DNA of 31,774 nt from a virus (lineage: Duplodnaviria; Caudoviricetes): IMG/VR virus record IMGVR_UViG_3300010413_000114, positions 1 through 31,774 of that record; one strand, 5' to 3'. The notes beneath the pieces are model-generated. The model had not been told where the DNA came from. It searched no databases and saw only the letters and a program-made list of their open reading frames with translations. The position numbers were made by a program, and so were the translations under genes. The stretch's first letter is position 1; each line of letters starts with the position of its first letter. Below are positions 2,405 to 20,661 of this stretch, in pieces.

Positions 2405-2680
2405 CTATCTCCTATTAAAATCTTTTGCTGGTATTGGTGATACTGGTCGATTAGCCACCTGGATTCGAGGCTTGCCAGTTCGCCATCTGCGATAATTATC
2501 ATCCATCCAATCAGTAGCGATATCGAATGGGTTGAAACCAAATCTAAACTTCTGAGGTACCCGGTTCATTTTCTGGCCACACACCGGGCATGCTACCTCT
2601 GGGTTGTCATCAAAGCTCAGTGTTATCTCAAGCTTCGGGTGTTTGGGATCCTTACATCCATATACATATGTCGGCATCAT
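2405..2680 (-). CDS. FmdB-family zinc-ribbon protein
   Basis: MPTYxYxC...CPVCG..MNR pattern. The first knuckle is C-x4-H rather than CxxC. AGGAGG RBS; start could be 2677. Confidence 0.8.
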   Translation of the reverse strand: MMPTYVYGCKDPKHPKLEITLSFDDNPEVACPVCGQKMNRVPQKFRFGFNPFDIATDWMDDNYRRWRTGKPRIQVANRPVSPIPAKDFNRR

Positions 2681-4242
2681 TCTCCTCCTGTGATCTTTTC
2701 GTACAAACCAAACAGGTGCTTATGCTGCACATTAATATAATGGCCATCAAGCTTTATCCGGACCAGGTCATCACCCATCGGACGGATCTGTACTTCCTTC
2801 TCCTGGTGCAGAACAATAGCATCCTGAGCTTCTTGCATATTACCGCCGATATCGCCCAGCTCCAGGCCATCTTCCCTGGCACAGTAAAGGCCCAGCGTGG
2901 TGGGAATATGGAAGTAGTTGTCTCGATCCGCACATCTCAACCAGAATTCATAATCCCCTGCAGATTTCCAGTGGTCCATAAAATATCCATGACGCTGGTG
3001 CAGGTTCGCACGCCACATCGGGTGAGGCCCAATGAAACAACCATCAACCAGTTTATCTCGTTCATAGTCTGGCCAATTGAATATGCCAGGTTGATATAAC
3101 GCCCGGCCAACAATCAATGGTTTATTAAAGTTTTCCTTTACAAATTCCTCGAAGAGCTGGTTAGGTTTCCAGGTGATGAAGCTGTCATGATAGACCAGGT
3201 CCAGATCTGGCCGGGCATCCAATACACTGGACATTAGTTCATAAGCATATGGATGATGTCTATCATCCGTGTTCGCATTTGTAATATATTTCCCGGATGC
3301 AGATCTAATAGCCTGGTTCCAGGCAGCATAGACCGTGGGAATATCGGTGGTTTGGATCAACCTCACATCACAGGGATAATCCTCGTCAGCAACTACTTCC
3401 ATGGCCAGGTCAATTTCTTTACTATCTTGCTGGGCAATCAACACGATCTCCAGCTCAGTTGCTATCGTCTGCCTGGCCAGGTCAAACATACACCCCTGGA
3501 TAAAATCTTCTGCATGATAGGCTGAGACAATTGCTGACACCTTATTGTCTAGAACTGAATTCATATAATTGAGTGGCTCGATTGGGAATACTGGGCATTT
3601 GGTCCTGCTGCTGCAATTAGTGATTGATCGTCCGTTTTTCTCGAATGCTGCTTTGGCCAGGCTATATGCCAACTCGGATTTGCTTAGATCAGGTGTATGC
3701 CAACGCACACCACCACTGAAGTAGTTTTCGTCAAAGTGATATCGATCTGGACCATTAGCCACAATCGACAGGTTGGGTGCAATTTGCTCACCGTAGTCAT
3801 GATCTAATCCAACCAGGTAGACCCTCTTGAAACCCATATAGTATGCCAGCTGCAGACATACATAAGTTACCGTATGACCTTCCCATATTGGTCCTTCTGG
3901 ACTGGCAAAAATTGCAGAGTTTAGAGTAGTATCTAGTAGGATCACATCCTCGTCTTTATCCGAGAACCTCTCCTCGGTGAAGGGAGTCCTGGCCAGGAAT
4001 TTTATTGTAGGGATCCTCATGATCTCATCGATAAACTGTTCGATCACCAATGGATTAACGGCCACATAAAAGTCTGGAGTGTAATCCTTCAAGTAAATAC
4101 GATTGGTGCCAAATGTCGGACAATCAAAGTTTGGCAACCAAACATCGTTCAAGCTTGGCCCATTGCCCATGATCACGCATTCTGGATTACCAGTGCGTGC
4201 ATCACTGCGTGCAGATATGTTTGCATAATCTTCTATTCTCAT
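2677..4242 (-). CDS. Two-domain glycosyltransferase: N-terminal DUF115/Maf (CstII/GT42-like) domain fused to a GT2 domain
   Basis: N-half: CVIMGNGPSLN, FGTNRIY, PDFYVAVN, LQLAYYMGFKRVYLVGLDH. C-half: VSAIVSAY, AAWNQAIRSASGKYITNANTDD, AGDYEFWLR. Confidence 0.85.
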   Translation of the reverse strand: MRIEDYANISARSDARTGNPECVIMGNGPSLNDVWLPNFDCPTFGTNRIYLKDYTPDFYVAVNPLVIEQFIDEIMRIPTIKFLARTPFTEERFSDKDEDVILLDTTLNSAIFASPEGPIWEGHTVTYVCLQLAYYMGFKRVYLVGLDHDYGEQIAPNLSIVANGPDRYHFDENYFSGGVRWHTPDLSKSELAYSLAKAAFEKNGRSITNCSSRTKCPVFPIEPLNYMNSVLDNKVSAIVSAYHAEDFIQGCMFDLARQTIATELEIVLIAQQDSKEIDLAMEVVADEDYPCDVRLIQTTDIPTVYAAWNQAIRSASGKYITNANTDDRHHPYAYELMSSVLDARPDLDLVYHDSFITWKPNQLFEEFVKENFNKPLIVGRALYQPGIFNWPDYERDKLVDGCFIGPHPMWRANLHQRHGYFMDHWKSAGDYEFWLRCADRDNYFHIPTTLGLYCAREDGLELGDIGGNMQEAQDAIVLHQEKEVQIRPMGDDLVRIKLDGHYINVQHKHLFGLYEKITGGE

Positions 4243-5279
4243 CTCATTTCCTCTATTGTTGTGCGTAATTCTCCTAGATCAACTTCCATATTTTTACCTA
4301 CCGGGGTACAGCAAATCCCCCGGTAGTCGGCCCCGATTGCCATGGCCATGGTCATGATACATGGGTTTGCATAGTCAGGTGTGTACAATTCTATGATCTT
4401 TGGGTCCCATGAAAATACAGAATTGACCAGGCCAGATCCGTGTGGGCCTATAATAAAATCGGCATTAACGAATGCATTGACCTGGTCAATCCATGGCATC
4501 GTTTCGGGTTGAATGCGTTCTATTTCTACGGGCCACACCTCCTTCCATATCCGGGATTCGTTTACGATATGTCTTCCCTGTGCCAGTTCCCGAGATATAA
4601 AATAATTCTTTGGTAGTGTTAGTAATAATGCCTGTTCCCAAACTGTACGCCTTAACCAATCTAATGCTGTAGGATCTGTTCGGCCATTAGATCTGCGGAT
4701 CGTAGGCAGGACCAGGTTCTTAGCCCCTATGTGCATGGATGTGGTGGGGAGATGGCGTAATGATATGATGGATCTCTCGGCTCCTAACAGGAATCGTAGA
4801 CTATCGTACTGCCATTGTGGTGGGTTCTCCTCGAGTAAGATTACAACCTTCTGGTTGGTCATAGCTTCATAATGTAAAATGCCTTCGAGCTTCGGCAACC
4901 ATTCTATAATCCAATGGAAGTAATTACCGGACCACACCCCCACCATCGGGAATAACGGATCTTCGATTACATACCCAGGCTTGGCCATTGATTTGAGGGC
5001 CAGCATGTAATAGGGTTTGTTTCGGTCCAGGACATCTAGCCTGTTAGCATATGCTGTATCAAGTATCACATCCCCATCTTTGAAACCAACCATTGCTGGT
5101 CCACATAGATCTACGTCATGGATCTCATGGACCAGGAACCTATCGAATACATGTAGTCCTGATTTCTCCTGGAATTCAGCTGGCCAATTATCCTGGCTAT
5201 CTATTCTTAAGGCACATGGATAATTGTCCACGAACCAGGTGGCATGTGCTATTTTATGTATCGTGTTATTTGATATCAT
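4239..5279 (-). CDS. Glycosyltransferase family 61 (DUF563-like)
   Basis: NYFHWIIEWLPKL, YFISR...RHIVNE, QVNAF..ADFIIGPHGSGLVNSVF: hallmark GT61 motifs. Confidence 0.88.
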   Translation of the reverse strand: MISNNTIHKIAHATWFVDNYPCALRIDSQDNWPAEFQEKSGLHVFDRFLVHEIHDVDLCGPAMVGFKDGDVILDTAYANRLDVLDRNKPYYMLALKSMAKPGYVIEDPLFPMVGVWSGNYFHWIIEWLPKLEGILHYEAMTNQKVVILLEENPPQWQYDSLRFLLGAERSIISLRHLPTTSMHIGAKNLVLPTIRRSNGRTDPTALDWLRRTVWEQALLLTLPKNYFISRELAQGRHIVNESRIWKEVWPVEIERIQPETMPWIDQVNAFVNADFIIGPHGSGLVNSVFSWDPKIIELYTPDYANPCIMTMAMAIGADYRGICCTPVGKNMEVDLGELRTTIEEMR

Positions 5280-6039
5280 CGACTTCCACTATCCATCTGG
5301 ATTGATCATCTACGATGTAATCCTGCTGAACATACTTGATCCATGCCATTAATTCTACCAGGCCAAAGTCTTTATCTTCACCTATTAAATGCCCGGTGTG
5401 AATTGATATATCAGTATAAATTGGATATCCAGCTTTGCGGATCTTCTGGGATAGATAAAAGTCTTCACCAGCTCCATTGTTTCCCTCCATCACGCACCAT
5501 GGTTTGCTAATGTCTTCAAGTACATCTCGCCTGATCATTGTGAAATGTAGACCCACTCCATCTCGTGGGACCAGGTCGTCCTTCTCCTGGGGAAGGCACA
5601 TCGCATTGCTGCTTGCACTCTCATCAATACCATACTTCTTTGCTTTCTCGATGATCAGTTTGGCGATATCGGCAAATGCATAGATATGTTTACCTTCTTT
5701 GGTAGGACCTAAGTATCTGCCCATGGTGGGTGTCGGTGGTAATGACCTGGTGTACATGCATGCTGATACAACTGGTAGATCATGCAGCATCAATCGTTTG
5801 ATGGCCTCCCCGGACCACACCGCATCGTTATCAATGAACAATAAGAACCGTGGTTTTTCAGGATTGTCTATAAAATTCTGGATCAGATGATTGCGTGCAA
5901 CATCAACCCCCATGCCGTACAGTCTATTAAAATAAATGGGTGCAGGTTTCCATGAGTATAGAAGCGAGTCCACAAATGCGCCCATAAAAGGTTTCGTATA
6001 TGGGACACATACCTGCACACCAGATGTCAATACATCCAT
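5266..6039 (-). CDS. GT-A fold (GT2-like) phage glycosyltransferase
   Basis: VDVARNHLI, LLFIDND (DxD), GLHFTMIRRDVLE, GEDFYLS, TGH. Start moved from GTG 6072 (inside a hairpin) to ATG 6039. Confidence 0.85.
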   Translation of the reverse strand: MDVLTSGVQVCVPYTKPFMGAFVDSLLYSWKPAPIYFNRLYGMGVDVARNHLIQNFIDNPEKPRFLLFIDNDAVWSGEAIKRLMLHDLPVVSACMYTRSLPPTPTMGRYLGPTKEGKHIYAFADIAKLIIEKAKKYGIDESASSNAMCLPQEKDDLVPRDGVGLHFTMIRRDVLEDISKPWCVMEGNNGAGEDFYLSQKIRKAGYPIYTDISIHTGHLIGEDKDFGLVELMAWIKYVQQDYIVDDQSRWIVEVDDIK

Positions 6040-6051
6040 AATTGCAGGGTG

Positions 6052-6078
6052 GGGCAGGTGCCTGGGTGACACCTGCCC
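6052..6078 (-). other. GC-rich stem-loop between the cement gene and the glycosyltransferase cassette
   Basis: GGGCAGGTG-N9-CACCTGCCC perfect 9-bp inverted repeat. No U-tract follows on the coding strand, so it is not a classical intrinsic terminator. Confidence 0.6.
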
Positions 6079-6111: not shown

Positions 6112-6501
6112 TTACTCGAACGAGACTGCCCTGGTCCAATCATAACCAACATTCAGAACAATCCCGGCCTTAGCAGCACCGAAGTTCGCAGTACCATTGA
6201 TCACTAATTCTGTTTTGACGTATTTCTTGTCAGAGACAAAAGCTACCACGAATTCTTTACCACCCGAGGCCCAGGACTGTGCGCCACCAGGATAGCTTGC
6301 AGCTAACACATAGGTGGAGTCATCGTCAGAAACCCAAACACGAGGTAGTACATCTGTGGTGGTCCCAACAGTAGACGGCAACACAAAGTATGCTGCCATG
6401 CCGTGAATGGGAGTACCACGGATCTCTACACCGGAAGAGCTTTCGGACTGTGTCAGGTCGCCCGTAGTACGGGTCATCAAGTTAGCATCAAATGTAGGCA
6501 T
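6112..6501 (-). CDS. Capsid cement/decoration protein (Bbp16-like)
   Basis: Lies directly after the major capsid gene; 129 aa, beta-rich; FDANL...VSDDDSTY...KKYVK pattern resembles Bbp16-type cement proteins; AAGGAG RBS. Confidence 0.6.
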   Translation of the reverse strand: MPTFDANLMTRTTGDLTQSESSSGVEIRGTPIHGMAAYFVLPSTVGTTTDVLPRVWVSDDDSTYVLAASYPGGAQSWASGGKEFVVAFVSDKKYVKTELVINGTANFGAAKAGIVLNVGYDWTRAVSFE

Positions 6502-6512
6502 AATTGATCTCC

Positions 6513-7511
6513 TTATGCAGTCCAGTTGGATGGATCTTCAACGTTCTGGCCTCGTGCAATACCATAGCTACCGAAACCAGCAAGGCCTACCCACCAATCA
6601 ATACGTACTAGCTTGGTTGGGGTAGATTCCTGCTCACCACCACCGAGCGGATCGTAGACTGCCATTGGCTCAAGCTGGATACCAGTGACACCCTGCATCT
6701 CATTAAACGCAATTGCATAGATGGAGGTGGCATCGGTACCAGCATCACCAGCAACTTCGGTCCCGGTGATGATCTCGGTGCTCTGATCTTTCTTAAGCCC
6801 GATATCGATGATGGGGGATCCATACATGGTTGGGATGCTACGATCAAAGCTATCCTTGGTAACATCAAGAACATTGCCACCACCGGATTGAATGTAGCGT
6901 GCAACACGGCCAATACCCCATACCATGCCTTCATTGCAGATAAAAGCATTATGCTGGCCACGATTGGTTTTGTAATGCAGTTCTTCGAATTTCGTGTAGA
7001 AGGTATTACCAGATGCCACCGAGGAAGTAGGATCAAGTGCAGCTGAAGAGGCACCAGCAAAGTAAATGGTTTGCCTGGACGGCATACCACTGATACGTTT
7101 CTTCAGGCCCTCGAATCCTTTGTAATCGGTCGCATGGTCACCATTGATGAAGTAATCGTTGAACTTACAAGCCATGGCCATCAGCTTCATATCTGTGTGG
7201 GTCTTCTTTAGATCAACGATAGTATCCTTGACCAAATCAAAAACCCGGTCATATTTGATCTCGCCACCAAAACCATAAACAGATTCCCACACCTGCTCCA
7301 GGTCGCCCTCGGAGGGTGTATAGCCTTCATTGATTGTACGGAATGCTACATCGGGAAGAGTCTGCCAGCGTACTGCCACAGACCGAAGGGAGCTTACGTT
7401 TTGGAATGGCAAGACCTCAGCGATTTTCACTTCTCGCAGCAAGTTGGTGATCACATATTTCTTTAGTGGATCAGTCTCAACTTTTGCAAGATGTGCAAGA
7501 GTTAATGCCAT
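6513..7511 (-). CDS. Major capsid protein (epsilon15 gp7/BPP-1-like)
   Basis: MALTL...VLPF...LPDVAFRTINEGYTPS...FINGD...FEGLKKR motifs; follows the scaffold gene; AGGAG RBS. Confidence 0.85.
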   Translation of the reverse strand: MALTLAHLAKVETDPLKKYVITNLLREVKIAEVLPFQNVSSLRSVAVRWQTLPDVAFRTINEGYTPSEGDLEQVWESVYGFGGEIKYDRVFDLVKDTIVDLKKTHTDMKLMAMACKFNDYFINGDHATDYKGFEGLKKRISGMPSRQTIYFAGASSAALDPTSSVASGNTFYTKFEELHYKTNRGQHNAFICNEGMVWGIGRVARYIQSGGGNVLDVTKDSFDRSIPTMYGSPIIDIGLKKDQSTEIITGTEVAGDAGTDATSIYAIAFNEMQGVTGIQLEPMAVYDPLGGGEQESTPTKLVRIDWWVGLAGFGSYGIARGQNVEDPSNWTA

Positions 7512-7526
7512 AATGGTTCTCCTGAA

Positions 7527-8264
7527 TTAAACCCGGCCTCGTTTCTTGGCTAGATCCCATAACGAGTCAGGGTCCATAGTTGAGTGTACAGGATCACCTG
7601 CTGGAGCACCTGGACCACCAGACCCAGTAGGCATCCTACCAGGACCTGGTTCTTCCGGTGGTGCAGTTTCAGGAAGATCCTTGCCAGTATTTTCTAGTCG
7701 AGCTTTCTTAGCTTGGATTGCTTTCTCAATTGCCTGAAAATACTGCCGGGGTGTCTGGGCCTTGGCAAGGTATAGCTCTGCCTCTGGATCTTCCTGGCGA
7801 ATGTATACACCAGCTTCTTCCATCATGGCCCATCCATCTGCAGTAACACTATCAACACCCTGGTCCCGGGTGGGAGGCCTTTGGGCAGGAGCTTCTCCCG
7901 GGGTGACAGGTTCTTCATCAGCGTTAGCATAGGCATCAGTGATCACCCTCTGTCGCATTGCTTCTTCCTGTGCAGGGGTGACCTCGATACCAGTAGCTTT
8001 CATTGTTCCAATGCTGGTATTCAGTGCTTTGATTTGTTCGCTGATCTTACGGGTGATAGTGTCAGCTTGTTTGGTATTCAATCCCTGGACCCGGCGGAAA
8101 AGATTTTCCGTGATCTCATCAAGCTGCTCTTGACTAATAGTGACAGGGACTTCCTGCTGCTGGGCAGGTGTCTTCTGTTCAACTTCTGGTTTTTCAGGTT
8201 GAACTTCAGGTGGTTGCCCACCACCCGGATACTCTACGGCAGCATTATCAGTCTGGTTGTTCAT
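7527..8264 (-). CDS. Capsid scaffolding protein
   Basis: Acidic P/E/Q-rich N-terminus, helical core and short C-terminal helix; immediately upstream of the major capsid gene. Confidence 0.7.
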   Translation of the reverse strand: MNNQTDNAAVEYPGGGQPPEVQPEKPEVEQKTPAQQQEVPVTISQEQLDEITENLFRRVQGLNTKQADTITRKISEQIKALNTSIGTMKATGIEVTPAQEEAMRQRVITDAYANADEEPVTPGEAPAQRPPTRDQGVDSVTADGWAMMEEAGVYIRQEDPEAELYLAKAQTPRQYFQAIEKAIQAKKARLENTGKDLPETAPPEEPGPGRMPTGSGGPGAPAGDPVHSTMDPDSLWDLAKKRGRV

Positions 8265-8278
8265 ATTAGTTCCTTTTC

Positions 8279-8352
8279 ATTATACACTATTTGCAATATT
8301 TTTTTCTAAATGTGGCCAACCTGGTCCAACGTTTATTGCATTTGCAATTCTG
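8279..8352 (-). promoter_or_regulatory. Putative late promoter/operator, copy A (scaffold-capsid operon)
   Basis: TATAAT on the minus strand (8279-8284). 8291-8352 matches 26626-26687 without gaps (48/62). Contains the ATTGCA-N2-TGCAAT palindrome (8335-8348). Confidence 0.8.
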
Positions 8353-8382: not shown

Positions 8383-11300
8383 TTACTGTATCGGACTGTA
8401 TTGCATAAACTGTGTGACCAGGATCTCATCAATGAAGGTATCGAGATCCCCACCGGGCCGACCCATATCTTCCCAGATCTTACGTACTGCTATTCTGGCA
8501 CCATCTGAAAGCGGATCTCCGGTCCAGTAATAGCCCATCAAGGAACGAACCAGGCTAGTGGGCATCTCATCAATATTCACTTGTACTTTCTTCTCATAGT
8601 TATTTCCAAGCACATCTTCCGCAATTGATTCTACAGACTTAAGATATGGGATCATTTCCGGGTACATGCTCAGGAAGGAATCTTTGTGGTCCCAGAAGTC
8701 GATCAACTGTGGGAATTCCTTCAGATACTGTCGCTTGGCATTGCGTGTTGGTTGCTCATAGTAACCATTCTGTATATCGTAGATCTCATCACCCCAGAGG
8801 GTTTCGACCTGACCGTAATACTGGTAGTACAACGCTTGGGCCTCAGCTGGAGCACCTTTCATTTTCGCTTGATCACTAAGCACGTACTCAATGATGTCCG
8901 GATGTTCTGATAGATAAACCGTTTGCCAATCATAGTAGTCGTCAAACATGGGCATCTCGTCAGAGATTTTCTGTCTTTGATTTTCAGGTAGAGAGTAGAG
9001 CATATCCCACATCCGACTCAGGTGTGGGAACCGGGTATTACGTTCATCAACGTAGGCCTGGTACTGAGTGTCTATCTCGGGTGGGGAGAACTCGAACTCC
9101 ACCTGCGGTAATTCGGGCGCACTAGTAGGTACATACTCGCCCATTGTCTTGGACCACAGTGCAAGGGTTGCGGTGTCTATGCTGTCATAACTGCGAGTTT
9201 CCTTATCAAGGAAGGCATTCTGGAATACATCACCTAATCGTTCGGTCACCTCCTTTTTTTGTAGGCTAGACAATTTATTATTGTAGGCATCCCAGATCTT
9301 AGACCGCATTAGCATTCGCAGTCTTTCTTCTGGGTCATCAATAAAGCTTTGTTTCCTGGCCTGATATTCTGGGTATTCATCGAAGAATTTCCCAACGGTG
9401 TCTTCATATTTGCCACCATTGACCCAGGCCTCCATGGCTTTGTCATAATCATTCTTCAATGCTCGTTGCTTCTGTTCTCCTTCTGGGAACAGATCTACAC
9501 CGAAGGGTCCACCAATCCATCTTAGCTGGCCCGTAGCTGCTACCCTACGTTCTGCTTCCTCGAATGCAGGTCCTGAATATTCCACCTGTGCTCTCAGTAT
9601 TTCTTCTGTATCCCATCCTTCTGCAGCCATGTTGGATAGCTCACGTTCTATTCTATAATCCTGCCACATGTCCTGCTCTGGGAGGCCCAGCTGCTTTCGC
9701 AATGGAGCTTCTATATTGATGCCCTTGTTGGACCCACCGAGCATACCACCCAACATTCCTGTGATGTTTTGTATGGTCCTGGAGATGGGTAGCTGGCTGA
9801 TACGTTCTGGTCTACCTTTATAGACTTCGTACGCCCAGGTCAGTGGAAGGGACCACCCAAGTAATACCCGGCTGAATTCTATTGGTGAAGTGATCTCGGG
9901 TTCCACATCCAGGTAAGCCTTGCTGTAAGCTTGTTCCCAAACAGGTCCCTCGAGATTAGTCAAAGCTAGTTTAGCTTCTTCTGGTGTGATCTCCCCGTTC
10001 TCCACCTGGTTCTCAATTATTCCCTGCGCTCGTTTATTGATCAGGTTCTGTTCTTCTGCGTATGCATCATAAGGCCTGGTCAGCTGGGTGAAGGGAAATA
10101 GCTTCTTGAGTGGATCCATGTACAGACCACCACCCATCCATTCTGGCAAGAACGGTGTTGGCATTCTGATCTTATTCTCGAGGCGTTTTGGAAAACCAGG
10201 TTGTTGTAATGCTTTGGTTTGTGCAGATCTCAGCCTGGCATAGTTCGCAAATATTGCAGGACTATCCATAGCACGCAAGGCCCACTTAGCTGCAGACCTG
10301 GTGTACCAGAATTGATAGGGCATGATAGCTTGCAACAGGTTATCAAAGTTATATCTCTTGTTGTAATTCAGAAGAGCTGAGTCCCTCTTCATCTCACCGT
10401 ACCTGGTTGCTGCAAGCTTCGTATCATTCTGCTGACCATACACATTACCCATATATCCACGCAGATCTCGCATGGTTTCTTCTGGAATAGCCTGGCCAAC
10501 ATTCTGGATTCCTTCCGGGATCACTGCATCATCACTTGCTATTCTTTCCCTGGCCCCATCGAGTAGTGGTTTCAATATTGTTTCATAACCATCCAGTGCC
10601 ATCCAGCTCTGGGGTGCATTGTCATCTATGTCACCAACAGACCCAGGTGGAAGGTTCATAGCTGGATTATCTTCTATCTGAGGCAGGTTCAATTCCCGGC
10701 CATCTTCCATCTGGAAGAGGATCGAAGGGTTCTCAGGATCATAGAGTCCACCATTGTAGATTGATTTGACCTGCTTACTGTCGAACACCACATAGGATAT
10801 TGCGTCAACCCGATCAGCTGCTCTACCGTTTCTCCATACATCAATGTAGTCAGGGAATATGAAACCATCATAACCATTAGATCTTGCAATCCTGGTTAGA
10901 TCTGTCGAGTCATTTAGGACCTTCATCAATACCCATGGTATAGCTGGAGCAGCACGCCCCTGATCAGTGTACAGTTTAGTGATCTTGTTGTAGATGAATT
11001 CTTCTGTTAGTCCTTCTGCTGCAAATTCCGGAATTGATCCAATAGCCTTTGCCAGGTCCCTGATTGCATCAACGGATGAGTCATAGCTATGTTTCAAATT
11101 GCTAAGATCTAGAGGGTTCTCCATTTTAAGATTGACAGGTTTTATTCTTGCATTGTTCCATTCACCTGCCATCTCTGATGCATACCTTGGATCATCTGTA
11201 AAATACATCCATCCTCTGACACCCTGCCTCGGATCGAAGATATCAAAGTCGGCACCATCGTAATTCATTTTGCTGGTCCCATGATAGACTGTCTTTGGTG

Positions 11301-14300
11301 CGCCATCTTCATCCATAATCTTGGACTCGCCAAACCATTTCATGAAGTTCTCAGCTCTGGCATCGGGTGGTTGGATCCTTGCGTATCCTTGTTCGGTCCG
11401 GATCTTGTACTCTTCGATCTCTGGGTATTCAGCTAATAGCCTGTCGTATACACCTCTCATCTCATCTGTAAGATTTGGCAGCTGTCCTTTTGCCCTTGCG
11501 TAGATCGTTGCAATCCATTCCTTTAGCTGCTCGAATACTCTTGCTAATCCCTCGACCGGGGCCTTACCTTCTCGTAGATACTGCACCCAACCATCAGCGA
11601 ATTTCTCCTCTGCTGCCCTGGTCCATACACCGTTCTTCGCCCCAGCCCAATCCTCAGCTATCTTCAGATCTGCAGCATCAAGATCTCTCCGGAATATATG
11701 ACCCACTTCATGTAGGACCGTTGTCAGATCTGGATTGTTCAGTGCATGAATAATGGCCTTGCCGTCATCTAGGAATGACACCGCACCTCGTGCTGTTTCA
11801 CCCATCATCTGATCATAGGACATCTTGTATAGTACATTGCTGTCCTTGTCGGTTAGGCCAATCATCCGATCAAAGATACCTTTCACTGTATCGTTGACTG
11901 TTGCTTTATATGCTGTGTTCGATTTGACCTTCCAATAGATTCTGCTCAACCACTCGTTGAACTTATCGAACATTGGCTGCAGTCTCTCGGGTATTGGCAA
12001 TCTGTATGTCCCACTGGTAACATAATTCTTTCGTTTCTTAAGATAGATTTCGAACCAGGTCCCAACTTTATTTAGTGCAGCTTCATTCCATTCGGCTCCT
12101 GCTTTCAGTCCTGCTTCAGCTTTCAATATTGAACTATCATCTGGTGTTAGATACTTCACGAATACTGGCATCAATGAGTTAGCAAAATCCCCAACATTAG
12201 TTGCATCACTGAAGGCGTGCATAATAGCTTTGCCATCATGGCCGAATTCAACAGCTGATCTATTGACACCATTCAATACCATGTTGATGATATCGCCACC
12301 ATCACCACGTTTGAAACCACAGCACACACCACAGGTAGAACAACGACCAGTGCCACAACACAACTTGGACCAGGCCTTGTCTGTGAATTCATCCATGGTT
12401 GCATCAGGCCCAGCCCATTTGTGCAGGAAGTCTTCATCTATAGCCTTGAAGAATTCTGGGACCTTGCGTGAGCTATACATGTTGGCCAATATATCTACAG
12501 TATTGGGGCCTAATACTTCCTTCAAATGTGGATCTTGATAATCCCATACGATCTTGAATATATCCGGATCGACATTGCCATGGTATAGAGTAACCACATC
12601 GAACCGATCATCCATAATAGCTTTGACGGCATCTTCTGCATTCATGGCCACATAACGAACAGCTACTCTTGGATTGTCTTTTGCCAGTGCTGCTGCTTCA
12701 TCTATGTCCCAACCAAATGATATCTCTCGGTTCGCAGTTGTCAGTGACTCAACTAACATGCTTTGTTGTCTCATTACGAACTTAGCCATCTCTGGTAATT
12801 CATCAGCTGGCATACTCTTGATCACATCAAGTCGAGGCATCATTGCATCAATCTCTTTAGGACTATGACCACCAGCTTTCAGCAATTGTCTATTCTGTTC
12901 AATCAATTGTGTAAGTGCAAATTCAGATAATGCATCAGCATGTTGTGGGTTGTAATCGGTGGAGAGATTGAAATAGACATGTTCGTACTGGCCGTATCTT
13001 TCCAGTGCTTCTGGTTGTTTGGTGATCATCTTTAGATTCAGACCACGTTCTGCAGCATCAGCTACTGCCTGGTCCAGGACCGGGATATCCATCTCTTGAA
13101 AATCACCAATGCTAAACACCCTCATTCCACCGGAGGCATTCAAGAAGTCAACTGTATCCTGTGGCATATCTAGTATTTGCATAGACTCATATGGTGCAGA
13201 TTCGTATATCAGGTTTGGATTAACAGGTCCTTTCTGTATACCCACAGCTTTTTTGGATCTTGGCAAATCAACATAACAGATTATGCATGAACGATTCATT
13301 TTCCTGAATGGACAATTAGCAGAAACATCTAAGGCCATTAGTGTTTTGTCATTCAAATGAACTGCATTAAACCCCTTCATTTTCTTGCCAGTGACCGGGT
13401 CTATTATTGGCAATCCTGTATCGGGATCCTTTATTTCAAATGACCTGTTCTTCCTCATAATGAAGTTAACAAAATCATCAAAGTATTTATCTGAATCCTG
13501 GCCATGAACCTTATTCAAATATTCTGTGACTGCCATGTTGTCGATGTCTGGTAGTGCAGTTTTGTATATCATCCCGGTCGCAGTAGAATCATATTGCGAT
13601 CTCTTCACACCACCCCAGTTGATAGATACAAAGTGATCTGGATCTATACCTGCAGTCTCGGCCACAGCTTCTACTAATGCGCCTACATACTTGGCCTGTT
13701 CGGGTGTGACTCGGGTCCCGGTATTCTGTATCTGACTAACAAACTCGGCCAATGTTTGCGGTGGTGTAATGGTTTGTTCAGGCCTGGCAGATCCCTTTAG
13801 ATATGCACTGTCAGGTAGCATCTGGAATAGAGATGACCGTGATGGTTTCTCGTTGGTGATCTCAGCAAAGTGGGTTGCATAATATTCTTCAGGTGTCTTG
13901 CCATACTTCTTGGCCCAGAGATTAGCTCTTCGATCAATGACATCAATCACCACCTGTGCTTCTTCTGGCCACAGTTCAAAGTAGTGCATCAAGTCCATAT
14001 GGACCTGCATCTTATTCATACCCAGTGCAGCTGCAGCCATGTTCTGTTCACCGAATAATGGACCACCCACTTCACCACTGCCAGCATTGACGGCACCTTT
14101 CATCCTCAGCTGGGACTGCATTGCATCTTCCATGCCGGGCAGTATTGGTTGTGGTTCTTCACCTGGTTTGAATTTACCACCCTTAGCTTCTTGCATTTCT
14201 AGTGTGAGCTTCGGCCGTTCTTCTGGGAACATGCTCAGTTGTTCTGCAGGTTGGAATAGAATGGATGGTCCATCGGTGTAGTTGCCGTCATGCCAGATGG

Positions 14301-17300
14301 ATTTGATCTGGTTCGCCCGGAATGCCACCCAGGAATAATCGTTTGTTACATTACCAAATTCGTCAACCACGCCTTCTACTGCATTGATATATTTCAGACC
14401 ATCGTAACCCAGATCCTCAATATAATTTCTTAGTACCCTCCACTGTAATTGCTGAGAATCTTTAAACTGACGTTCCCATGCAAAGTATTCTGCATCGGTC
14501 CACTTCTCACCTTCAACATATTTAGATATAAACTCTCCGTATGTTTCGCCTTTGACTTTATCTATCTCATTTATAAGTTTCATTGACTCTCTAAAACTTA
14601 TGTAATTTCTTTTTTCCATATCCTCAATGAGCTTATAAGGATCAAACGCATCCGATACTTCCATAGGATTTACAATCTTCAATATGACCGGAAGGATCCT
14701 GGAATTCTCGGGGGGTGCAGTGTCCAATAATCCAAACATTTGCAATCTGTCATTGGCAGCTTTTGCTGTACCAAAGTGAAACCCTATATCAGATGATCTT
14801 GCAAAGATAGTGAATGGTTGTTCAGCATCGGTACCGTGGTATACAACTAGTGGCATACCATTAGATTCTGATACAGCACTTTCTCCAAACCAGCGCATAC
14901 TTGCTTCATCACCAACCTGATACAGTATCTCGGGGAGAGTGTCATCCTTAGCTGTGGACCTGGCTGCATCATCAAGATTGGTAGCACGCCTGATGTATTC
15001 CTGGATCTCCTTGGCATAGGGGATCGTCTTCATGATGTCATCCATCTCGGGGATGGTTGGCTCGGCCGGGTATTTCAGATCAGCAAGCCTGGCCTGGATC
15101 GCAAGGTAATCATCGATCAGGTCCTGGGATGCATCCTTTGGCATGGTCAATTCAAGGTCAGTCAATCGAGCTTCTACTTTCTCAAGCTGTCCTTCTATCG
15201 TGATAATACGGGGATCTCTGAGAGTCTTCTCGACATCATTCAGTTCTCGTCTAAATAGATTCTCGGAAAAGTCCAGGCCCAATGATGCTCGAACATCAGA
15301 TCTATTTCCTATGTCACCCAGTGCTATTTCCCTGAGGGACCTGGTTATAGCCACATCAACTGCCTCACCTTTAATCATGTCTTGAAGAGCACCTACGATC
15401 GCATATTTCTTTCGCCTGGTTGCAGGTATATCGTTATTCGGATTATTGTAGTAAGTCTGCTTGAAGGTTTCGTACCATACCGGGTAAGTCTTTGGTAGAG
15501 TGCTTTCGTATCTGCCTTCAATATAGATATCTTGTGCTGGTTGTCCCATCTCGATCTCGGCCAGCATTTCACCTAGTCTTTCCTCGAGTGCTGCCCTTAC
15601 AACTTCATCACCGATCTCACTAATAGGCACAGTTGCATCCAGGATCTGATGCTCTACTGGATGTAACTTCCTTCCTAGCATCATTTCCTTTTTCAGATCT
15701 CGAACCTTAGCCACTGCTGCAAGGATCTCTTCTGGTGTATCGATCAGTGATAGGTTTAGTTCTCGTGCTACCTCCAGGTGCTCTGGCATATCAGCTGTAA
15801 ACAACCACTCGTTTACATAATTGGTCAGCTGTTCTGTTGCCTCGGGTGTCAATGCCTTAGTGACCGCACTAACTTCCCTTTCAATTCTTTGTAATTTCTC
15901 CTCGATGTAACCCCAATCGGGATATGTTTTGGTCAGCTCTCTGAAGACATCACCTGCACCTTCAGCTATGATACCGATATCCCGGTTCTCCATTGCCTTG
16001 GGTAGTTGCTCAACGGTATCGTTCTGCCAGTTGTACCATTCAAGATCCTGCTCTTTAGGTGGTTGTATCTGCCAGTATTGGACATCGACCCCGGACTCCT
16101 TCATCTCTTTGCGTTTCTCGAACACTGCCCGGGCCAGCTCTTCAGTAATATCATTGAAGGTATAAACATCATCAGCTTGTTTGGCCAGGTTTGGATCATC
16201 AAGGATGGGACCGTATTTCTTTACCGTCTGATATATTCGGCCATCAGCACCACGTTTATAGTGACCTGCAGTATCAGCTGTTTCTATTCCATATTCCTGG
16301 GCAACCTTCCTTACCTTCCCACGCTGGACCCTTTGGTATTCCTCATATGCCATTCGCCAGATATCGTTCAGCTCTTCTGATGTGCGACCACCAAGGGCCT
16401 CATGGATCTGTTCGATGTCATCAAGTGCAGCACCCAGCTGTTCCCAATCCTGAGATACCACAGCTTCACCGAGTTTCTTTTGTGCTACCTCGGAGGCCTT
16501 TCTATTTCTCAGGTCGATCAGTTCTTGCTGCCTCATTGCTGATATAGCATCGGCAGCTGATCCAATTATCTTAGGTTCAGGTGGTGGTGGTGCTTCTGGG
16601 ATCTCCGCACCCAATGCTGCTTTCTCGGCAGGTCCTTCCATTCCAACAGGGGTTACTTCACCTGGTACTGCTGGTTCCATGGGTTTAGGTCCACCTTCTG
16701 GTGCAGCATGTGTGGGTGGTGCGCTTGGTTCTGGACCGGGACCTGGTTCTGTTGGTGGTGCTTTCTCCTCGCCTACACCCATGATCTTGCGGATCATTTC
16801 CCTAACACCAACTACATTGCGTTCATACTTAGATAAGATCTTCTCGTAATAACCACCACCTGTCTGCAGGAAATTACGCCAGGCATCATGTCTCTTCTTA
16901 CCTTTGATTGTCTTTAGTCTTTCCTGGAACTTGTCCATCTCCAGGTTCATTTCTTTGACGATATTGCGAACACCCTCTCTCCATTCTGTAACAGCTTGTT
17001 TGCCAATGTCACCAAATTGATTGTATGCAAGCTCGGCCAGGTGATTATCCATAGCTTCCATCAGCTGCATCTCTTGGTCCATTCTTATACGTGATAGCTC
17101 GTTGATCGTATCTACTGTACTGGACCATCCTGCATCACGTTCAACCTTGGATTTCCATTGCGTACCCCAGAATTCATCTAATGCTTTTTGTTTCGCATAA
17201 TAGAATTCTTTATTGTTCAACATCTTTTCTTCTACAAATCGCAACAACTCCAGGGTATCAGGACCGCATACACCCAGGCCTTGAGCAATGCCCAGGTAGT

Positions 17301-20300
17301 GTGCTTTCTCGATCATGTAGTATCTATTCCAGTGTGCAGTTTCCTGTGCTCTGGTCTTCTGGTACAGTGCGGATCGTGCATCAAAGTCAAGCTTCTCCCC
17401 GGCCAGGAAGGCAGCTTCCCAATGTTCATATCCAGCTAACCATCTTTGCGTGTACTGTTCTTGGAGCTTATCCCATATCGGCAGCACACCAACCAATCCT
17501 TCACCCTGTGCAGAGGTAGCAAGTGCAGCCTGTTCGGTCATAGCTTTTGTTTCTCGTGTGATCATCTCGTCTAGCTTCTTAACGATATGCTCATCTAAAC
17601 TATTGAATACATCCATGACCTGTTCAGGTGTGACTGCATCTACTAGACGCTCATCCAGGAATTCTTTCACCCCCAACTTGCTGATCAAATCCGTAGCCTG
17701 GTTGATGTCTAATGGTATACCTGCAGCCTGAGATTCCTTTACCATATCATCGACTGCCCAGCTCAACCCCCGGCGTTTTATATTGGCCCACAGTCTATTC
17801 TCAATAGCTTTCTGTGATATTCCACCTTCAATAATTCCGTATATCAATTCGGGTAGATCTGGATTGAGTGCTCTTAGATCATTCTCCAGGATAGCTGGCA
17901 TTCGATCGAAACCTAATCCCCTTCTCCAGTTAGTATCATAAAATTGTTTGGTAGCTATCGTATATCCTTGGGCCGAGGCATGAGCTTCAGCGTTAGATGA
18001 CAATGTTTGGAAGACCTGGATCTTCTCAACCCCTTTCGATCTTAGTATGCGATTGACCTTGTTTAGGAAGTCAGTCTTTTTCGTTGCCTCAGTTAATCCA
18101 GTGTAATCAACATTAATCCCGGTGGCATAAGGACCTTGGCCATCACTATATCGGACCGGGCGCATACCCTTTCCCAACATTTCATCCCAAATCTTGGCCC
18201 GGGATGCTGGTGTATTGAAACCGAATATACCCTCAGCTATGGATACCACCGTGTTATCGATCGTGTTGTTGAAGAAGTAAGTTGGGTTAAGCCCGAGCAG
18301 CAAGAAGCTTTGTGATGCCTTCATCGTGTTAGATAATCGGACCCACAGTGGATCAGGTTTCACACCGAACCAGGTTGCTGCCCATTTGCTCATGTGTTCC
18401 ATCTGTGCTCCAACCATAGCTTTCTTAAGATGATCGAAGTCAACAAATGTATTATCGTTGGTGAAGGGAAGAAGCTTCTGTCTTAGATTGTCGGCATATA
18501 AGGTGCCATCCTCAATACTCTTGATTATGAGCTTGGCTGCATCAGTATCTGTTTCATATGCTGCACGCTTTATAGTCTCGAACACAGCATCGAACTCTTT
18601 TACTTCTTTGATCTTTTGCAACAACCCAGATGTGGAATCCTTTAGCATATCCCTTACAGCATGGAAGATCCCACGGTTCCAATCATATGCCTTGAAGTTA
18701 TCTACCATTTCTGTGGCCGTGGGCATAAAGTCTTTGCTGGCCATTGGTATCACCCGGGCATCAGGTGATTGTATTGCCTTCATTGAAAGCTCAGTTGCCA
18801 ATTCATCTGGCGTATTACTGATCTTATCGACCAGGCCCAGTAGCTCATCTTCATTCTTGGCCGTGTCATAAACCTTCATCAATACATCAGCACCATGGTT
18901 TAGAGTCTCACCAGCTCTGGCCTTTGGCTGCAGCTGGAACAGCCAGGATACTGCACGAATGGCAGCGTTGTTACTTGGTTTGTAATTCACGGATCGAGGC
19001 ACGCCATCTTTAGTAACATCACCCAACCACCTGGCCACGGATCCCATGGTAGCTATCTCTTCTGCAGGTACAGCTCTACGTAATATGGCACCATAGGTTT
19101 GGAACACTTTTGGCACACCACCCTGGACTCTTGCTGCCATCTGGAGATATTTGTTTTTGGTAAGCCCGGCATATGCTTTGATTGGAGCTTTGGTTATAGG
19201 TCCTGCAACATTCAGCGGATCGAGCGCAACTTGTCCAACCAGGTCCGAGGTAATAGCATTCAGGTTTAGCATGCCGTCAACGTACATAGCACGCTCCATG
19301 ATCTCCCTTACATTGGCATCTGGATTACTGACCAGCTCATTGAAGACACTCCATACCAGATCATCACCAGTAATAGGTGCCTCCATTGGTGCAGCAGCTC
19401 CGAGATACCACTCCTCACCTGGTCCAGCTATGTAATCAAATATTTGTTCTGGATGTTCTATCTTCCCCTTCTTCATTGCCTCAGCTACACTAGCAAGATT
19501 CCATATTCCTGATCCACCACCACGAGAAGTTGCCATACCACGAAACATCCTTGCTAATCCAGGTATTGCATCCTTCCACTCAAGATCACCACTGTCCTCT
19601 TTTTCCTTGAGCCAACTGTATGTATCTTCCAAGTGATACATAACATCAGGGATTCCAGCTGACTGACCAGATTCATAGTATGCAAGGTTCGCTTCATATG
19701 CCTGAGGTAGATTAGCAAGAATAGTTTCCAGGTCCCTTCCTTCTTCTGGGTATCTCCATGCATTCCATAACATCTCCCCTGTACCCAGTGCTCTTTCCAT
19801 ATGTTCAGCTGGTACGTTCAACCACTTAAGAATATTGCTGACCAATGGCATACCTGGAGCTTCAGGATATTTTTGTGCAAGCAGACCCACTCCTCCCAAA
19901 CCTGCACCCATAGCACCACCAATTAATGTCCCAACACCAGGCGCACCAAATGTACCCATGACGGCACCCATCAATGTTGGCTGCACAATACCACCACCAG
20001 CTGTCATCAACCCCTGCATTGTCTTCATCCAGGTAGGTAGCTCTTCGTATTGTTTGTTGGTGAGTCCACCTAGTGCAGGGTTCTGGATGTCTTCCTCGGG
20101 GATCGTGCTATATGGTTGCTGCCATCCTCGTCTGATGTCAGATAGTGGTACTCTTCCACCCGGGTAATACTCTCGAATACCTGCCCATGGATCCTTGGGT
20201 GGCTGGGGTAGGTTCAATAGCTCCAATGATGTGGGATCATCGTAGGGCAAATAATTCCACAACCACCATGGTTTACCTGCATTCTGTTCGGAGAGCTTCT

Positions 20301-20661
20301 TATACGCATCCCCCATGACCTTGGCGTTATACCAGGGTGGCATTGCAGCCTGACGCTGGATCTCACTGTCAAATGGTTGGGTTTCTTTGATGGCCTGGTA
20401 CCTGGCTATTCGTTGTGGGTTCTCCCAATATCCCCGTACATAATTCTGCCAGTATTGTTTCTGTGGCCACCACGGTTTGACAAATGAGAACCCACCAGCT
20501 GATGGTTGTTGTACTGGTTCTGGTTCTTGTGCTGGTCCCACTGGTCCTGTTGCTACAGGTGTCTTCCCCTTCAATGCATAATAGCTTGGTGCATCGGGCG
20601 AATAGCTTGGACCAGAAGGTTTAGCTGGCTCTTGTGGTTGCTTCTTCAGCCAATTTAACAT
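8383..20661 (-). CDS. Giant polyvalent virion/ejection protein (~4,092 aa)
   Basis: Uninterrupted 12.3-kb ORF. Start moved to ATG 20661 (TGATG coupling). N-terminal Gly-zipper hydrophobic segment, two ART-PolyVal-like domains, an HEVGH zincin motif and a Cys-rich GP88-like domain. Confidence 0.88.
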   Translation of the reverse strand: MLNWLKKQPQEPAKPSGPSYSPDAPSYYALKGKTPVATGPVGPAQEPEPVQQPSAGGFSFVKPWWPQKQYWQNYVRGYWENPQRIARYQAIKETQPFDSEIQRQAAMPPWYNAKVMGDAYKKLSEQNAGKPWWLWNYLPYDDPTSLELLNLPQPPKDPWAGIREYYPGGRVPLSDIRRGWQQPYSTIPEEDIQNPALGGLTNKQYEELPTWMKTMQGLMTAGGGIVQPTLMGAVMGTFGAPGVGTLIGGAMGAGLGGVGLLAQKYPEAPGMPLVSNILKWLNVPAEHMERALGTGEMLWNAWRYPEEGRDLETILANLPQAYEANLAYYESGQSAGIPDVMYHLEDTYSWLKEKEDSGDLEWKDAIPGLARMFRGMATSRGGGSGIWNLASVAEAMKKGKIEHPEQIFDYIAGPGEEWYLGAAAPMEAPITGDDLVWSVFNELVSNPDANVREIMERAMYVDGMLNLNAITSDLVGQVALDPLNVAGPITKAPIKAYAGLTKNKYLQMAARVQGGVPKVFQTYGAILRRAVPAEEIATMGSVARWLGDVTKDGVPRSVNYKPSNNAAIRAVSWLFQLQPKARAGETLNHGADVLMKVYDTAKNEDELLGLVDKISNTPDELATELSMKAIQSPDARVIPMASKDFMPTATEMVDNFKAYDWNRGIFHAVRDMLKDSTSGLLQKIKEVKEFDAVFETIKRAAYETDTDAAKLIIKSIEDGTLYADNLRQKLLPFTNDNTFVDFDHLKKAMVGAQMEHMSKWAATWFGVKPDPLWVRLSNTMKASQSFLLLGLNPTYFFNNTIDNTVVSIAEGIFGFNTPASRAKIWDEMLGKGMRPVRYSDGQGPYATGINVDYTGLTEATKKTDFLNKVNRILRSKGVEKIQVFQTLSSNAEAHASAQGYTIATKQFYDTNWRRGLGFDRMPAILENDLRALNPDLPELIYGIIEGGISQKAIENRLWANIKRRGLSWAVDDMVKESQAAGIPLDINQATDLISKLGVKEFLDERLVDAVTPEQVMDVFNSLDEHIVKKLDEMITRETKAMTEQAALATSAQGEGLVGVLPIWDKLQEQYTQRWLAGYEHWEAAFLAGEKLDFDARSALYQKTRAQETAHWNRYYMIEKAHYLGIAQGLGVCGPDTLELLRFVEEKMLNNKEFYYAKQKALDEFWGTQWKSKVERDAGWSSTVDTINELSRIRMDQEMQLMEAMDNHLAELAYNQFGDIGKQAVTEWREGVRNIVKEMNLEMDKFQERLKTIKGKKRHDAWRNFLQTGGGYYEKILSKYERNVVGVREMIRKIMGVGEEKAPPTEPGPGPEPSAPPTHAAPEGGPKPMEPAVPGEVTPVGMEGPAEKAALGAEIPEAPPPPEPKIIGSAADAISAMRQQELIDLRNRKASEVAQKKLGEAVVSQDWEQLGAALDDIEQIHEALGGRTSEELNDIWRMAYEEYQRVQRGKVRKVAQEYGIETADTAGHYKRGADGRIYQTVKKYGPILDDPNLAKQADDVYTFNDITEELARAVFEKRKEMKESGVDVQYWQIQPPKEQDLEWYNWQNDTVEQLPKAMENRDIGIIAEGAGDVFRELTKTYPDWGYIEEKLQRIEREVSAVTKALTPEATEQLTNYVNEWLFTADMPEHLEVARELNLSLIDTPEEILAAVAKVRDLKKEMMLGRKLHPVEHQILDATVPISEIGDEVVRAALEERLGEMLAEIEMGQPAQDIYIEGRYESTLPKTYPVWYETFKQTYYNNPNNDIPATRRKKYAIVGALQDMIKGEAVDVAITRSLREIALGDIGNRSDVRASLGLDFSENLFRRELNDVEKTLRDPRIITIEGQLEKVEARLTDLELTMPKDASQDLIDDYLAIQARLADLKYPAEPTIPEMDDIMKTIPYAKEIQEYIRRATNLDDAARSTAKDDTLPEILYQVGDEASMRWFGESAVSESNGMPLVVYHGTDAEQPFTIFARSSDIGFHFGTAKAANDRLQMFGLLDTAPPENSRILPVILKIVNPMEVSDAFDPYKLIEDMEKRNYISFRESMKLINEIDKVKGETYGEFISKYVEGEKWTDAEYFAWERQFKDSQQLQWRVLRNYIEDLGYDGLKYINAVEGVVDEFGNVTNDYSWVAFRANQIKSIWHDGNYTDGPSILFQPAEQLSMFPEERPKLTLEMQEAKGGKFKPGEEPQPILPGMEDAMQSQLRMKGAVNAGSGEVGGPLFGEQNMAAAALGMNKMQVHMDLMHYFELWPEEAQVVIDVIDRRANLWAKKYGKTPEEYYATHFAEITNEKPSRSSLFQMLPDSAYLKGSARPEQTITPPQTLAEFVSQIQNTGTRVTPEQAKYVGALVEAVAETAGIDPDHFVSINWGGVKRSQYDSTATGMIYKTALPDIDNMAVTEYLNKVHGQDSDKYFDDFVNFIMRKNRSFEIKDPDTGLPIIDPVTGKKMKGFNAVHLNDKTLMALDVSANCPFRKMNRSCIICYVDLPRSKKAVGIQKGPVNPNLIYESAPYESMQILDMPQDTVDFLNASGGMRVFSIGDFQEMDIPVLDQAVADAAERGLNLKMITKQPEALERYGQYEHVYFNLSTDYNPQHADALSEFALTQLIEQNRQLLKAGGHSPKEIDAMMPRLDVIKSMPADELPEMAKFVMRQQSMLVESLTTANREISFGWDIDEAAALAKDNPRVAVRYVAMNAEDAVKAIMDDRFDVVTLYHGNVDPDIFKIVWDYQDPHLKEVLGPNTVDILANMYSSRKVPEFFKAIDEDFLHKWAGPDATMDEFTDKAWSKLCCGTGRCSTCGVCCGFKRGDGGDIINMVLNGVNRSAVEFGHDGKAIMHAFSDATNVGDFANSLMPVFVKYLTPDDSSILKAEAGLKAGAEWNEAALNKVGTWFEIYLKKRKNYVTSGTYRLPIPERLQPMFDKFNEWLSRIYWKVKSNTAYKATVNDTVKGIFDRMIGLTDKDSNVLYKMSYDQMMGETARGAVSFLDDGKAIIHALNNPDLTTVLHEVGHIFRRDLDAADLKIAEDWAGAKNGVWTRAAEEKFADGWVQYLREGKAPVEGLARVFEQLKEWIATIYARAKGQLPNLTDEMRGVYDRLLAEYPEIEEYKIRTEQGYARIQPPDARAENFMKWFGESKIMDEDGAPKTVYHGTSKMNYDGADFDIFDPRQGVRGWMYFTDDPRYASEMAGEWNNARIKPVNLKMENPLDLSNLKHSYDSSVDAIRDLAKAIGSIPEFAAEGLTEEFIYNKITKLYTDQGRAAPAIPWVLMKVLNDSTDLTRIARSNGYDGFIFPDYIDVWRNGRAADRVDAISYVVFDSKQVKSIYNGGLYDPENPSILFQMEDGRELNLPQIEDNPAMNLPPGSVGDIDDNAPQSWMALDGYETILKPLLDGARERIASDDAVIPEGIQNVGQAIPEETMRDLRGYMGNVYGQQNDTKLAATRYGEMKRDSALLNYNKRYNFDNLLQAIMPYQFWYTRSAAKWALRAMDSPAIFANYARLRSAQTKALQQPGFPKRLENKIRMPTPFLPEWMGGGLYMDPLKKLFPFTQLTRPYDAYAEEQNLINKRAQGIIENQVENGEITPEEAKLALTNLEGPVWEQAYSKAYLDVEPEITSPIEFSRVLLGWSLPLTWAYEVYKGRPERISQLPISRTIQNITGMLGGMLGGSNKGINIEAPLRKQLGLPEQDMWQDYRIERELSNMAAEGWDTEEILRAQVEYSGPAFEEAERRVAATGQLRWIGGPFGVDLFPEGEQKQRALKNDYDKAMEAWVNGGKYEDTVGKFFDEYPEYQARKQSFIDDPEERLRMLMRSKIWDAYNNKLSSLQKKEVTERLGDVFQNAFLDKETRSYDSIDTATLALWSKTMGEYVPTSAPELPQVEFEFSPPEIDTQYQAYVDERNTRFPHLSRMWDMLYSLPENQRQKISDEMPMFDDYYDWQTVYLSEHPDIIEYVLSDQAKMKGAPAEAQALYYQYYGQVETLWGDEIYDIQNGYYEQPTRNAKRQYLKEFPQLIDFWDHKDSFLSMYPEMIPYLKSVESIAEDVLGNNYEKKVQVNIDEMPTSLVRSLMGYYWTGDPLSDGARIAVRKIWEDMGRPGGDLDTFIDEILVTQFMQYSPIQ
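10710..11350 (-). other. ADP-ribosyltransferase-like (ART-PolyVal-type) domain, copy 2, in the giant protein
   Basis: FMKWFGESKIMDEDGAPKTVYHGT...F..F...MYFT...NPL...GYDG...YVVFDSKQVKSIYNGGLYD. Confidence 0.75.
11425..11795 (-). other. Zincin metallopeptidase-like domain (HExxH) in the giant protein
   Basis: RGAVSFLDDGKAII...TTVLHEVGH (11698-11712)...EEKFA (candidate third Zn ligand). Confidence 0.75.
12315..13380 (-). other. GP88-like / radical-SAM-like Fe-S domain in the giant protein
   Basis: C-x8-C-x2-C-Y (13273-13314), GGMRVFSIGDF, ITK, NLSTD, and the C-terminal cluster CCGTGRCSTCGVCC (12319-12360). Confidence 0.6.
14250..14900 (-). other. ADP-ribosyltransferase-like (ART-PolyVal-type) domain, copy 1, in the giant protein
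   Basis: RWFGESAVSESNGMPLVVYHGT...GFHFGT...NP...GYDGLKYINAVEG...WVAFRANQIKSIWHDGNY. Confidence 0.75.

Follow-up and report, generated by a model that had tools for sequence, protein, structure and literature searches.

A variable glycosyltransferase cassette behind the capsid and cement genes of an environmental tailed phage, and its probable role in virion glycosylation

Immediately behind the capsid and cement genes of the phage fragment IMGVR_UViG_3300010413_000114 (31.8 kb, analysed over its whole length and referred to here as the window; near-complete relatives are 41–42 kb) lie three overlapping genes that encode four glycosyltransferase domains. The slot that they occupy is a variable cassette throughout the lineage, and the type of transferase found there follows the tree of the cement protein rather than that of the capsid. 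Because this slot behind capsid and cement is filled by alternative transferases that are inherited with the cement, the phages likely sugar-coat their own heads, and we favor, with a probability of about 0.68, the view that virion proteins are O-glycosylated late and in the cytoplasm, likely on a loop of the cement protein, with sugar donors of the host. A virion glycan had been suggested in a first-pass annotation of the sequence; it is the best supported of the explanations considered here, by the fold neighbors of the first enzyme, the lineage-wide slot, the co-inheritance, and the failure to detect partners of either the DNA-modification or the Gtr type. The features of the region, by position in the window, are as follows.

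7527–8264, minus strand: probable scaffold protein, assigned by position and conservation, with no family match
6513–7511, minus strand: major capsid protein of the GP7/phrog_212 type (PF20911; phrog_212, E = 1e-41)
6112–6501, minus strand: Bbp16-like cement protein, 129 amino acids (aa), assigned by ESM Atlas features (score 0.95–0.96)
6052–6078, minus strand: GC-rich hairpin of 11 base pairs, between the cement gene and the cassette
5266–6039, minus strand: GT-A glycosyltransferase, 257 aa, with its ATG at 6039, assigned by profile and fold
4239–5279, minus strand: GT61 glycosyltransferase, 346 aa (PF04577, E = 1.9e-22)
2677–4242, minus strand: fusion of a PF01973 (MptE-like/Maf/DUF115) and a GT2 domain, 521 aa, assigned by Pfam domain matches
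2405–2680, minus strand: FmdB-type Zn-ribbon gene, which closes the slot in many relatives

The terminase, the probable portal, a 4103-aa protein, the scaffold, the capsid and the 129-aa cement gene are likewise all on the minus strand of the window. The Atlas clusters that the cement protein matches contain 14–83% PF21190 members, and it has no Pfam match over the cut-off. As the first-pass annotation had described, the GT-A, GT61 and Maf/GT42-like plus GT2 genes directly follow scaffold, capsid and cement, and they overlap one another and then the Zn-ribbon gene by 14, 4 and 4 nucleotides (nt) in succession. Two further claims of that annotation hold: the proteins lack evident transmembrane anchors, the highest 19-residue hydropathy being 0.89 for GT-A, 1.08 for GT61 and 1.06 for the fusion compared with 2.16 for the holin, and they are encoded far from the replication genes, a DnaD-like gene (28802–29557) lying about 23 kb away within the window. 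The cement/GT-A, GT-A/GT61 and GT61/Maf junctions are each bridged by contigs of three studies, mostly about 99% identical, and the cassette is therefore not an assembly artefact.

Searches with the capsid protein yielded 109 loci; identical, truncated and too-short rows were dropped and five loci from transferase searches were added, giving 61 distinct capsids (L088, whose GT-A was detected afterwards, is outside this count). The slot contains a GT-A-type cassette in 24 of these, an unannotated 290–373-aa family designated C6 in 18, and no cassette in 19. A synteny survey had been proposed with the first-pass annotation, and the full order of GT-A, GT61, Maf+GT2 and Zn-ribbon genes behind capsid and cement recurs in three other phage contigs (L004, L005/L038 and L111/L123). 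GT-A followed by GT61 is found in L001 and L024, both of which end there, and in L036, where an FkbM methyltransferase comes next; in L124 the Maf+GT2 gene holds the first position. Companion genes in other cassettes encode GT2 enzymes, sulfotransferases, methyltransferases (FkbM, Methyltransf_23/24) and an NAD epimerase. Phages whose capsids belong to other families also carry the GT-A, Maf and GT2 families of the cassette, as fusions or as separate genes, in the vicinity of their capsid, adaptor or terminase genes (L138, L144, L146, L154, L162 and L164 are examples in head or head-tail modules). C6, which replaces GT-A in the slot and is often the sole enzyme there, is present 3′ of head-tail genes in L147, L151, L155–L158 and L163 as well. 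Two examples among the 18 C6 loci are:

L002, 1927–3036: C6
L003, 11442–12467: C6

HNH endonuclease genes lie inside the slot of L025 (7636–8088) and L045 (1499–2835), and the C6 gene of L045 apparently carries an intein-like insert.

When transferase type is mapped on trees of the same 57 rows, C6 occupies one side of a single branch (SH-aLRT support 92) and so requires one change on the cement tree, compared with five on the capsid tree, and GT-A requires three and seven, respectively. A single C6 clade on the capsid tree is rejected by the approximately unbiased (AU) test (p-AU 0.0195; 40 rows, LG+G4). The 165-aa gene downstream shows no grouping by transferase (four changes against a shuffled mean of 4.1, from 13 poorly resolved rows). 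The cements of the three classes also differ in a loop aligned to residues 56–66 of the window's protein: the motif [ST][ST]Y is found in 14 of 22 GT-A cements and in neither the 16 C6 cements nor the 19 without a cassette, and [AE]S[ST] is found in 13 of the 16 C6 cements and in no other class. The tree counts and these loop differences together indicate that cement and transferase move as a unit.

We predict that this loop, with residues S58, S62 and T63, is the glycan acceptor; it holds on average 3.4 serines and threonines in GT-A cements, 6.4 in C6 cements and 3.5 where there is no cassette. The C-terminus of the capsid protein, a W-T arm, is a secondary candidate. A W-[T/S] end is present in 40 of 42 cassette carriers compared with none of 19 non-carriers, and L058 (4820–5583), which lies inside the carrier clade, has lost the cassette and the hairpin from between its cement and Zn-ribbon genes together with the capsid threonine, its capsid ending at the tryptophan. 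Ten of 120 capsids end at tryptophan, and a search for their loci found none of that type. The capsid threonine as an obligatory acceptor is weakened by three cassette carriers without a W-[T/S] end (L124, L115 and L204), so this end is not required. Of two other proteins named as candidate acceptors by the first-pass annotation, the family of the 101-aa protein is present in loci both with and without a cassette, and no evidence was found for the 180-aa protein.

The GT-A protein has no Pfam match of its own, and its start at 6039 coincides with the residue at which its closest homologue begins. An alignment of 30 sequences conserves D70-x-D72 (D70-N-D72 in the window), G191-E-D193 and H217; the corresponding profile matches Sulfolobus turreted icosahedral virus (STIV) A197 best (E = 2.5e-9), followed by Mnn9. 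The predicted structure (pLDDT 91) gives a similar picture, with A197, LH3, COLGALT1, Mnn9, mimivirus R699 and the ppGalNAc-Ts at the top ranks of a Foldseek search. Most members of this group act on proteins or glycoproteins, and the soluble GT-A is predicted to be the priming enzyme. A single-sequence GT-A scan of IMG/VR returned no match, and GenBank phages gave weak partial matches only (GT-A one, GT2 six, GT61 none).

The remaining domains are of types predicted to extend and cap a chain. The GT61 protein scores 80.4 bits against PF04577, for which the curated cut-off is 27, and a profile built from five sequences matches POMGNT2 and EOGT (E = 5e-7 to 4e-6); it is predicted to be an extending enzyme, and polysaccharide enzymes also belong to GT61. 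The fusion protein, predicted to be both a capping and an extending enzyme, matches MptE-like/DUF115 at residues 19–151 (E = 2.9e-10) and GT2 at residues 236–345 (E = 4.1e-8). Its N-terminal domain spans approximately residues 1–228 and finds its best match in the GT42 enzymes CstI/CstII, with MptE marginal: the profile covers CstI over 135 positions (E = 2.7e-4) and MptE over only 24 (E = 0.068), and the PF01973 motifs GNGPS, N47, T126 and G145-x-D147 align to CstI. According to the available portion of bioRxiv 2020.06.03.131540, PF01973 is the catalytic domain of Maf, is related to CstII, and in Maf glycosylates Ser/Thr of a protein directly. About 65 near-full-length relatives of the fusion (41–62% identity) are present on contigs of up to 44 kb. 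The model of C6 matches CstI (Z 10.8, rmsd 3.7, 157 aligned), Maf 5mu5 (Z 10.0, rmsd 3.4, 158 aligned), MptE (Z 9.3), ST8SiaIII (Z 8.0) and thiamine pyrophosphokinases (Z ~7.5), and combines a Maf/GT42 fold with a helical C-terminal part; its Atlas neighbors are almost all viral. A sequence search of C6 against the PDB and a profile-profile comparison with Maf+GT2 (probability 2.7%) were both uninformative.

We therefore propose the following scheme, in which the four soluble glycosyltransferase domains would act late in infection and, from nucleotide-sugars of the host, assemble an O-linked oligosaccharide on proteins of the head, with the Ser/Thr loop of the cement as its most likely site. 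The A197-like GT-A would prime Ser or Thr, GT61 and GT2 would extend the chain in steps of presumed order, and the Maf/GT42-like domain would add a CMP-activated ulosonic acid (of the sialic-, pseudaminic-, legionaminic- or Kdo-type), either as a cap or directly on the protein. In 18 relatives a different, Maf-fold enzyme (C6) holds the first position, and methyl- or sulfotransferases could vary the coat. Such an acidic, hydrophilic coat would alter adsorption, stability or recognition. No CMP-sugar synthetase was found in five records (the window and four relatives, three of them near-complete; control positive) and no sugar pathway in the relatives with the full cassette, so the donors would be supplied by the host. 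The hairpin may set the dose of the enzymes. It has no U tract, is variable in sequence and has counterparts in relatives whether or not they carry a cassette; the 78 nt 3′ of the cement stop fold at or below −20 kcal/mol in the window and in 56 of 57 loci (raw energies, without a shuffle control), the sole exception being the cassette-less L058. The start codon behind it in the window has no clear Shine-Dalgarno sequence. It is likely a step-down terminator or an mRNA stabilizer between the abundant head proteins and the downstream genes, and read-through of it would lower enzyme levels.

Several observations weigh against this scheme. The cement tree draws on a short alignment (139 columns) and the AU test used a simpler model; moreover, the adjacency of cement and transferase, that is, linkage alone, could produce co-inheritance without any functional tie, so the co-inheritance is only a lead. 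The loop motifs were picked after inspecting the cement alignment, and the S/T-rich character of the cement, on which the first-pass annotation had relied in naming it an acceptor, does not distinguish the classes (S+T fraction 0.19 with GT-A, 0.21 with C6 and 0.21 without a cassette). As for the capsid, 18 of the 19 non-carriers are one clade, besides the three carriers without the W-[T/S] end. The fold neighbors do not define the acceptor of GT-A, and in the available portion of bioRxiv 2023.12.21.572611 some DNA-modifying phage GT-As best match a capsid glycosyltransferase and share R...DDD...ED motifs. Among cellular proteins, those closest to the Maf+GT2 protein are enzymes of surface glycans in general, and the kinase MptE also has the PF01973 fold. 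Finally, 11 of the 109 capsid-search loci, and L204, have a cassette that ends behind GT-A with a membrane protein designated C8; this protein fits lipid-linked, membrane-side chemistry, and a purely cytoplasmic model does not explain it. C8 is about 280 aa long with about seven helices (229 representatives), conserves P-x-Y-R, D-Y, R-E-T and E-x-R motifs, and is absent from the cassette type of the window. Eight seed members have no Pfam or PDB match, and two of 53 distant members match GT87 or EpsG below the cut-off, a weak GT-C-like lead. Examples are:

L042, 3673–4530: C8
L204, 9212–10048: C8
L052, L085, L092 and L108: C8

These last points bear on the alternative that the enzymes work on the cytoplasmic face and, with the help of flippases of the host, remodel one of its surface glycans (that of a lipid-linked O-unit, S-layer or pilin) so as to mask the receptor, which we regard as unlikely, though less so than the other two alternatives. 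GT61, GT42-like and GT2 enzymes are chain-extending types, the nearest enzyme relatives in cells are in bacterial genomes (for the fusion the nearest named one is a Chloroflexi HGW-4 bin protein, 42% identity), one relative (G004) has an integrase, and the GT-C-like C8 of sibling cassettes suits membrane work. Gtr serotype-conversion cassettes are likewise clusters of phage glycosyltransferases, but a GtrA-type flippase, which the first-pass annotation had also described as absent, is found in none of the five records, one of them (the window) a fragment, with the control positive in 8 of 14; the membrane-anchored GtrB/GT-C component is absent from the window's cassette, with a GT-C-like lead in its siblings, and the enzymes of the window carry no anchor. 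The position inside the head operon also differs; the cassette genes overlap in line with late structural genes, no promoter-like site is present on the coding strand of the cement/GT-A gap (the scan being at chance level overall, 16 found against 16.6), and the type of transferase tracks the cement gene.

Hypermodification of the phage DNA is the least probable alternative and seems very unlikely. According to the same partly available source (bioRxiv 2023.12.21.572611), 5hmC is glycosylated by phage GT-As whose active-site motifs are similar, some of which form sequential pairs and come with epimerases, and DNA-modifying glycosyltransferases normally adjoin a dioxygenase and a C5 methyltransferase, or ThyS. 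C5-MT/5mYOX/GT clusters resemble the cassette in grouping glycosyltransferases; here, a ThyS-type gene is found in none of the five records (control positive), a C5 methyltransferase in one, G004, about 22 kb from the cassette (control positive), and in three near-complete relatives none of 88 non-structural ORFs is recognized as a dioxygenase, although a Tet_JBP search, negative in all five records, was silent for its control too, and the cassette lies in the head operon. It is also improbable, if somewhat less so, that the target is another protein (a tail or ejection protein, or a cytoplasmic protein of the host) or that PF01973 transfers phosphoryl groups as in MptE and thiamine pyrophosphokinase. 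The Pfam name of the window's domain is MptE-like, and C6 matches both kinds of kinase structure, as given above; against this stand the far more extensive match of the domain profile to CstI than to MptE and the fusion of PF01973 domains to GT2 or GT-A domains.

Phage systems of this kind have been described. In the available portions of PMC11256854, PMC12619734, PMC12363180 and PMC13313380, mycobacteriophages Che8, Corndog and Myrna attach glycans to proteins of their capsid and tail tube. Che8 gp108-110 and Corndog gp36-38 resemble the cassette as several adjacent phage-encoded glycosyltransferases, with an O-glycan on head proteins predicted here, and the cluster of Corndog to which gp38 belongs is situated immediately upstream of the gene for the capsid protease. 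However, Che8 gp108-110 and Corndog gp35-38 have no detectable homology to profiles of the window or its siblings (the lowest E, in a search of 10 sequences, being 0.013), and a Foldseek search with the GT-A model lists a protein of mycobacteriophage Ardmore no higher than rank 46 (TM 0.46). The window differs further in its GT61 and sialyltransferase-like domains, its short-tail-type gene set, and its predicted acceptor, a cement loop in place of the C-termini of capsid and tail tube described in those sources as far as available. By analogy, the cassette would work like the Che8/Corndog system without being a member of it. In L131, L132, L137 and L139, GT-A+Maf fusions are accompanied by GT2 and methyltransferase genes immediately upstream of the terminase genes, at a site comparable to that of the Che8 cluster.

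STIV A197 (PDB 2C0N), the best profile and fold match, is likewise a small soluble viral GT-A; according to the available part of PMC10551542 it is an essential protein whose proposed role is glycosylation of the capsid of STIV, with donor and acceptor undetermined. It differs in belonging to an archaeal turrivirus with a double-jelly-roll capsid, shares 18% identity, and the window's GT-A is followed by three further glycosyltransferase domains. Maf (PDB 5MU5) and GT42 CstI/CstII share aligned motifs with the PF01973 domain and their fold with C6, but the window has only the ~228-aa catalytic domain compared with 632 aa in 5MU5, fused to GT2, and the phage has neither flagellin nor a CMP-sugar synthetase. 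POMGNT2 and EOGT belong to the Pfam family that the GT61 protein matches over the cut-off, whereas the latter is soluble, of 346 aa, and without an anchor. In the literature searched, which covered few subscription journals and was available in part, this enzyme set is not reported, nor is a head operon with a Maf-type enzyme or a glycosylated cement protein, and glycosylated virions of tailed phages are described for mycobacteriophages only and suggested for other actinobacteriophages.

If correct, virion glycosylation would extend to an unrelated environmental lineage through different enzyme families, cement S58/S62/T63 would be a named and testable acceptor, C6 and C8 would be two uncharacterized enzyme families, and the cassettes would offer soluble enzymes of small size as candidates for the O-glycosylation of proteins and for sialyl-type transfer. 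We also suggest, tentatively and at somewhat below even odds, that the cement and transferase module is a swappable capsid serotype locus in widespread sediment and soil phages. It might then be exchanged between lineages and capsid types, with the loop receiving either a multi-sugar glycan with a sialic-acid-like cap, sometimes sulfated or methylated, or just one sugar of the Maf type. If phages of sediment bacteria vary their coat, a selective role other than antibody escape would be implied. Chloroflexota are a weak lead for the host: in the class to which an Anaerolineales bin belongs, seven of 401 genomes contain relatives of the capsid (there was no control class), and three of six GTDB loci are in Chloroflexota bins and three in other bins.

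Other features of these genomes deserve mention. Immediately upstream of the capsid gene, L155 (6602–7135) and L157 (6975–7457) carry dTDP-4-dehydrorhamnose epimerase genes accompanied by glycosyl- and methyltransferases. In L118 (6846–7781) and L126 (5187–6353), head-tail adaptor proteins are fused to a phrog_5707 domain that weakly resembles the cement of the window and is similar to a portion of a tail tube family. The best sigma-70-like match of the window (10/12) is at 8279–8308 on the minus strand, just upstream of the scaffold gene, matches overall being at chance level. The 4103-aa protein (8383–20694, minus strand) has two ART-PolyVal domains, an HExGH motif and two Cys clusters, with inserts that differ in L001, and is probably ejected along with the DNA. 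Small genes at 1411–1629 and 21663–22084 (minus strand), in the structural region, include two whose products are very rich in Lys and Arg and are possible DNA-binding proteins.

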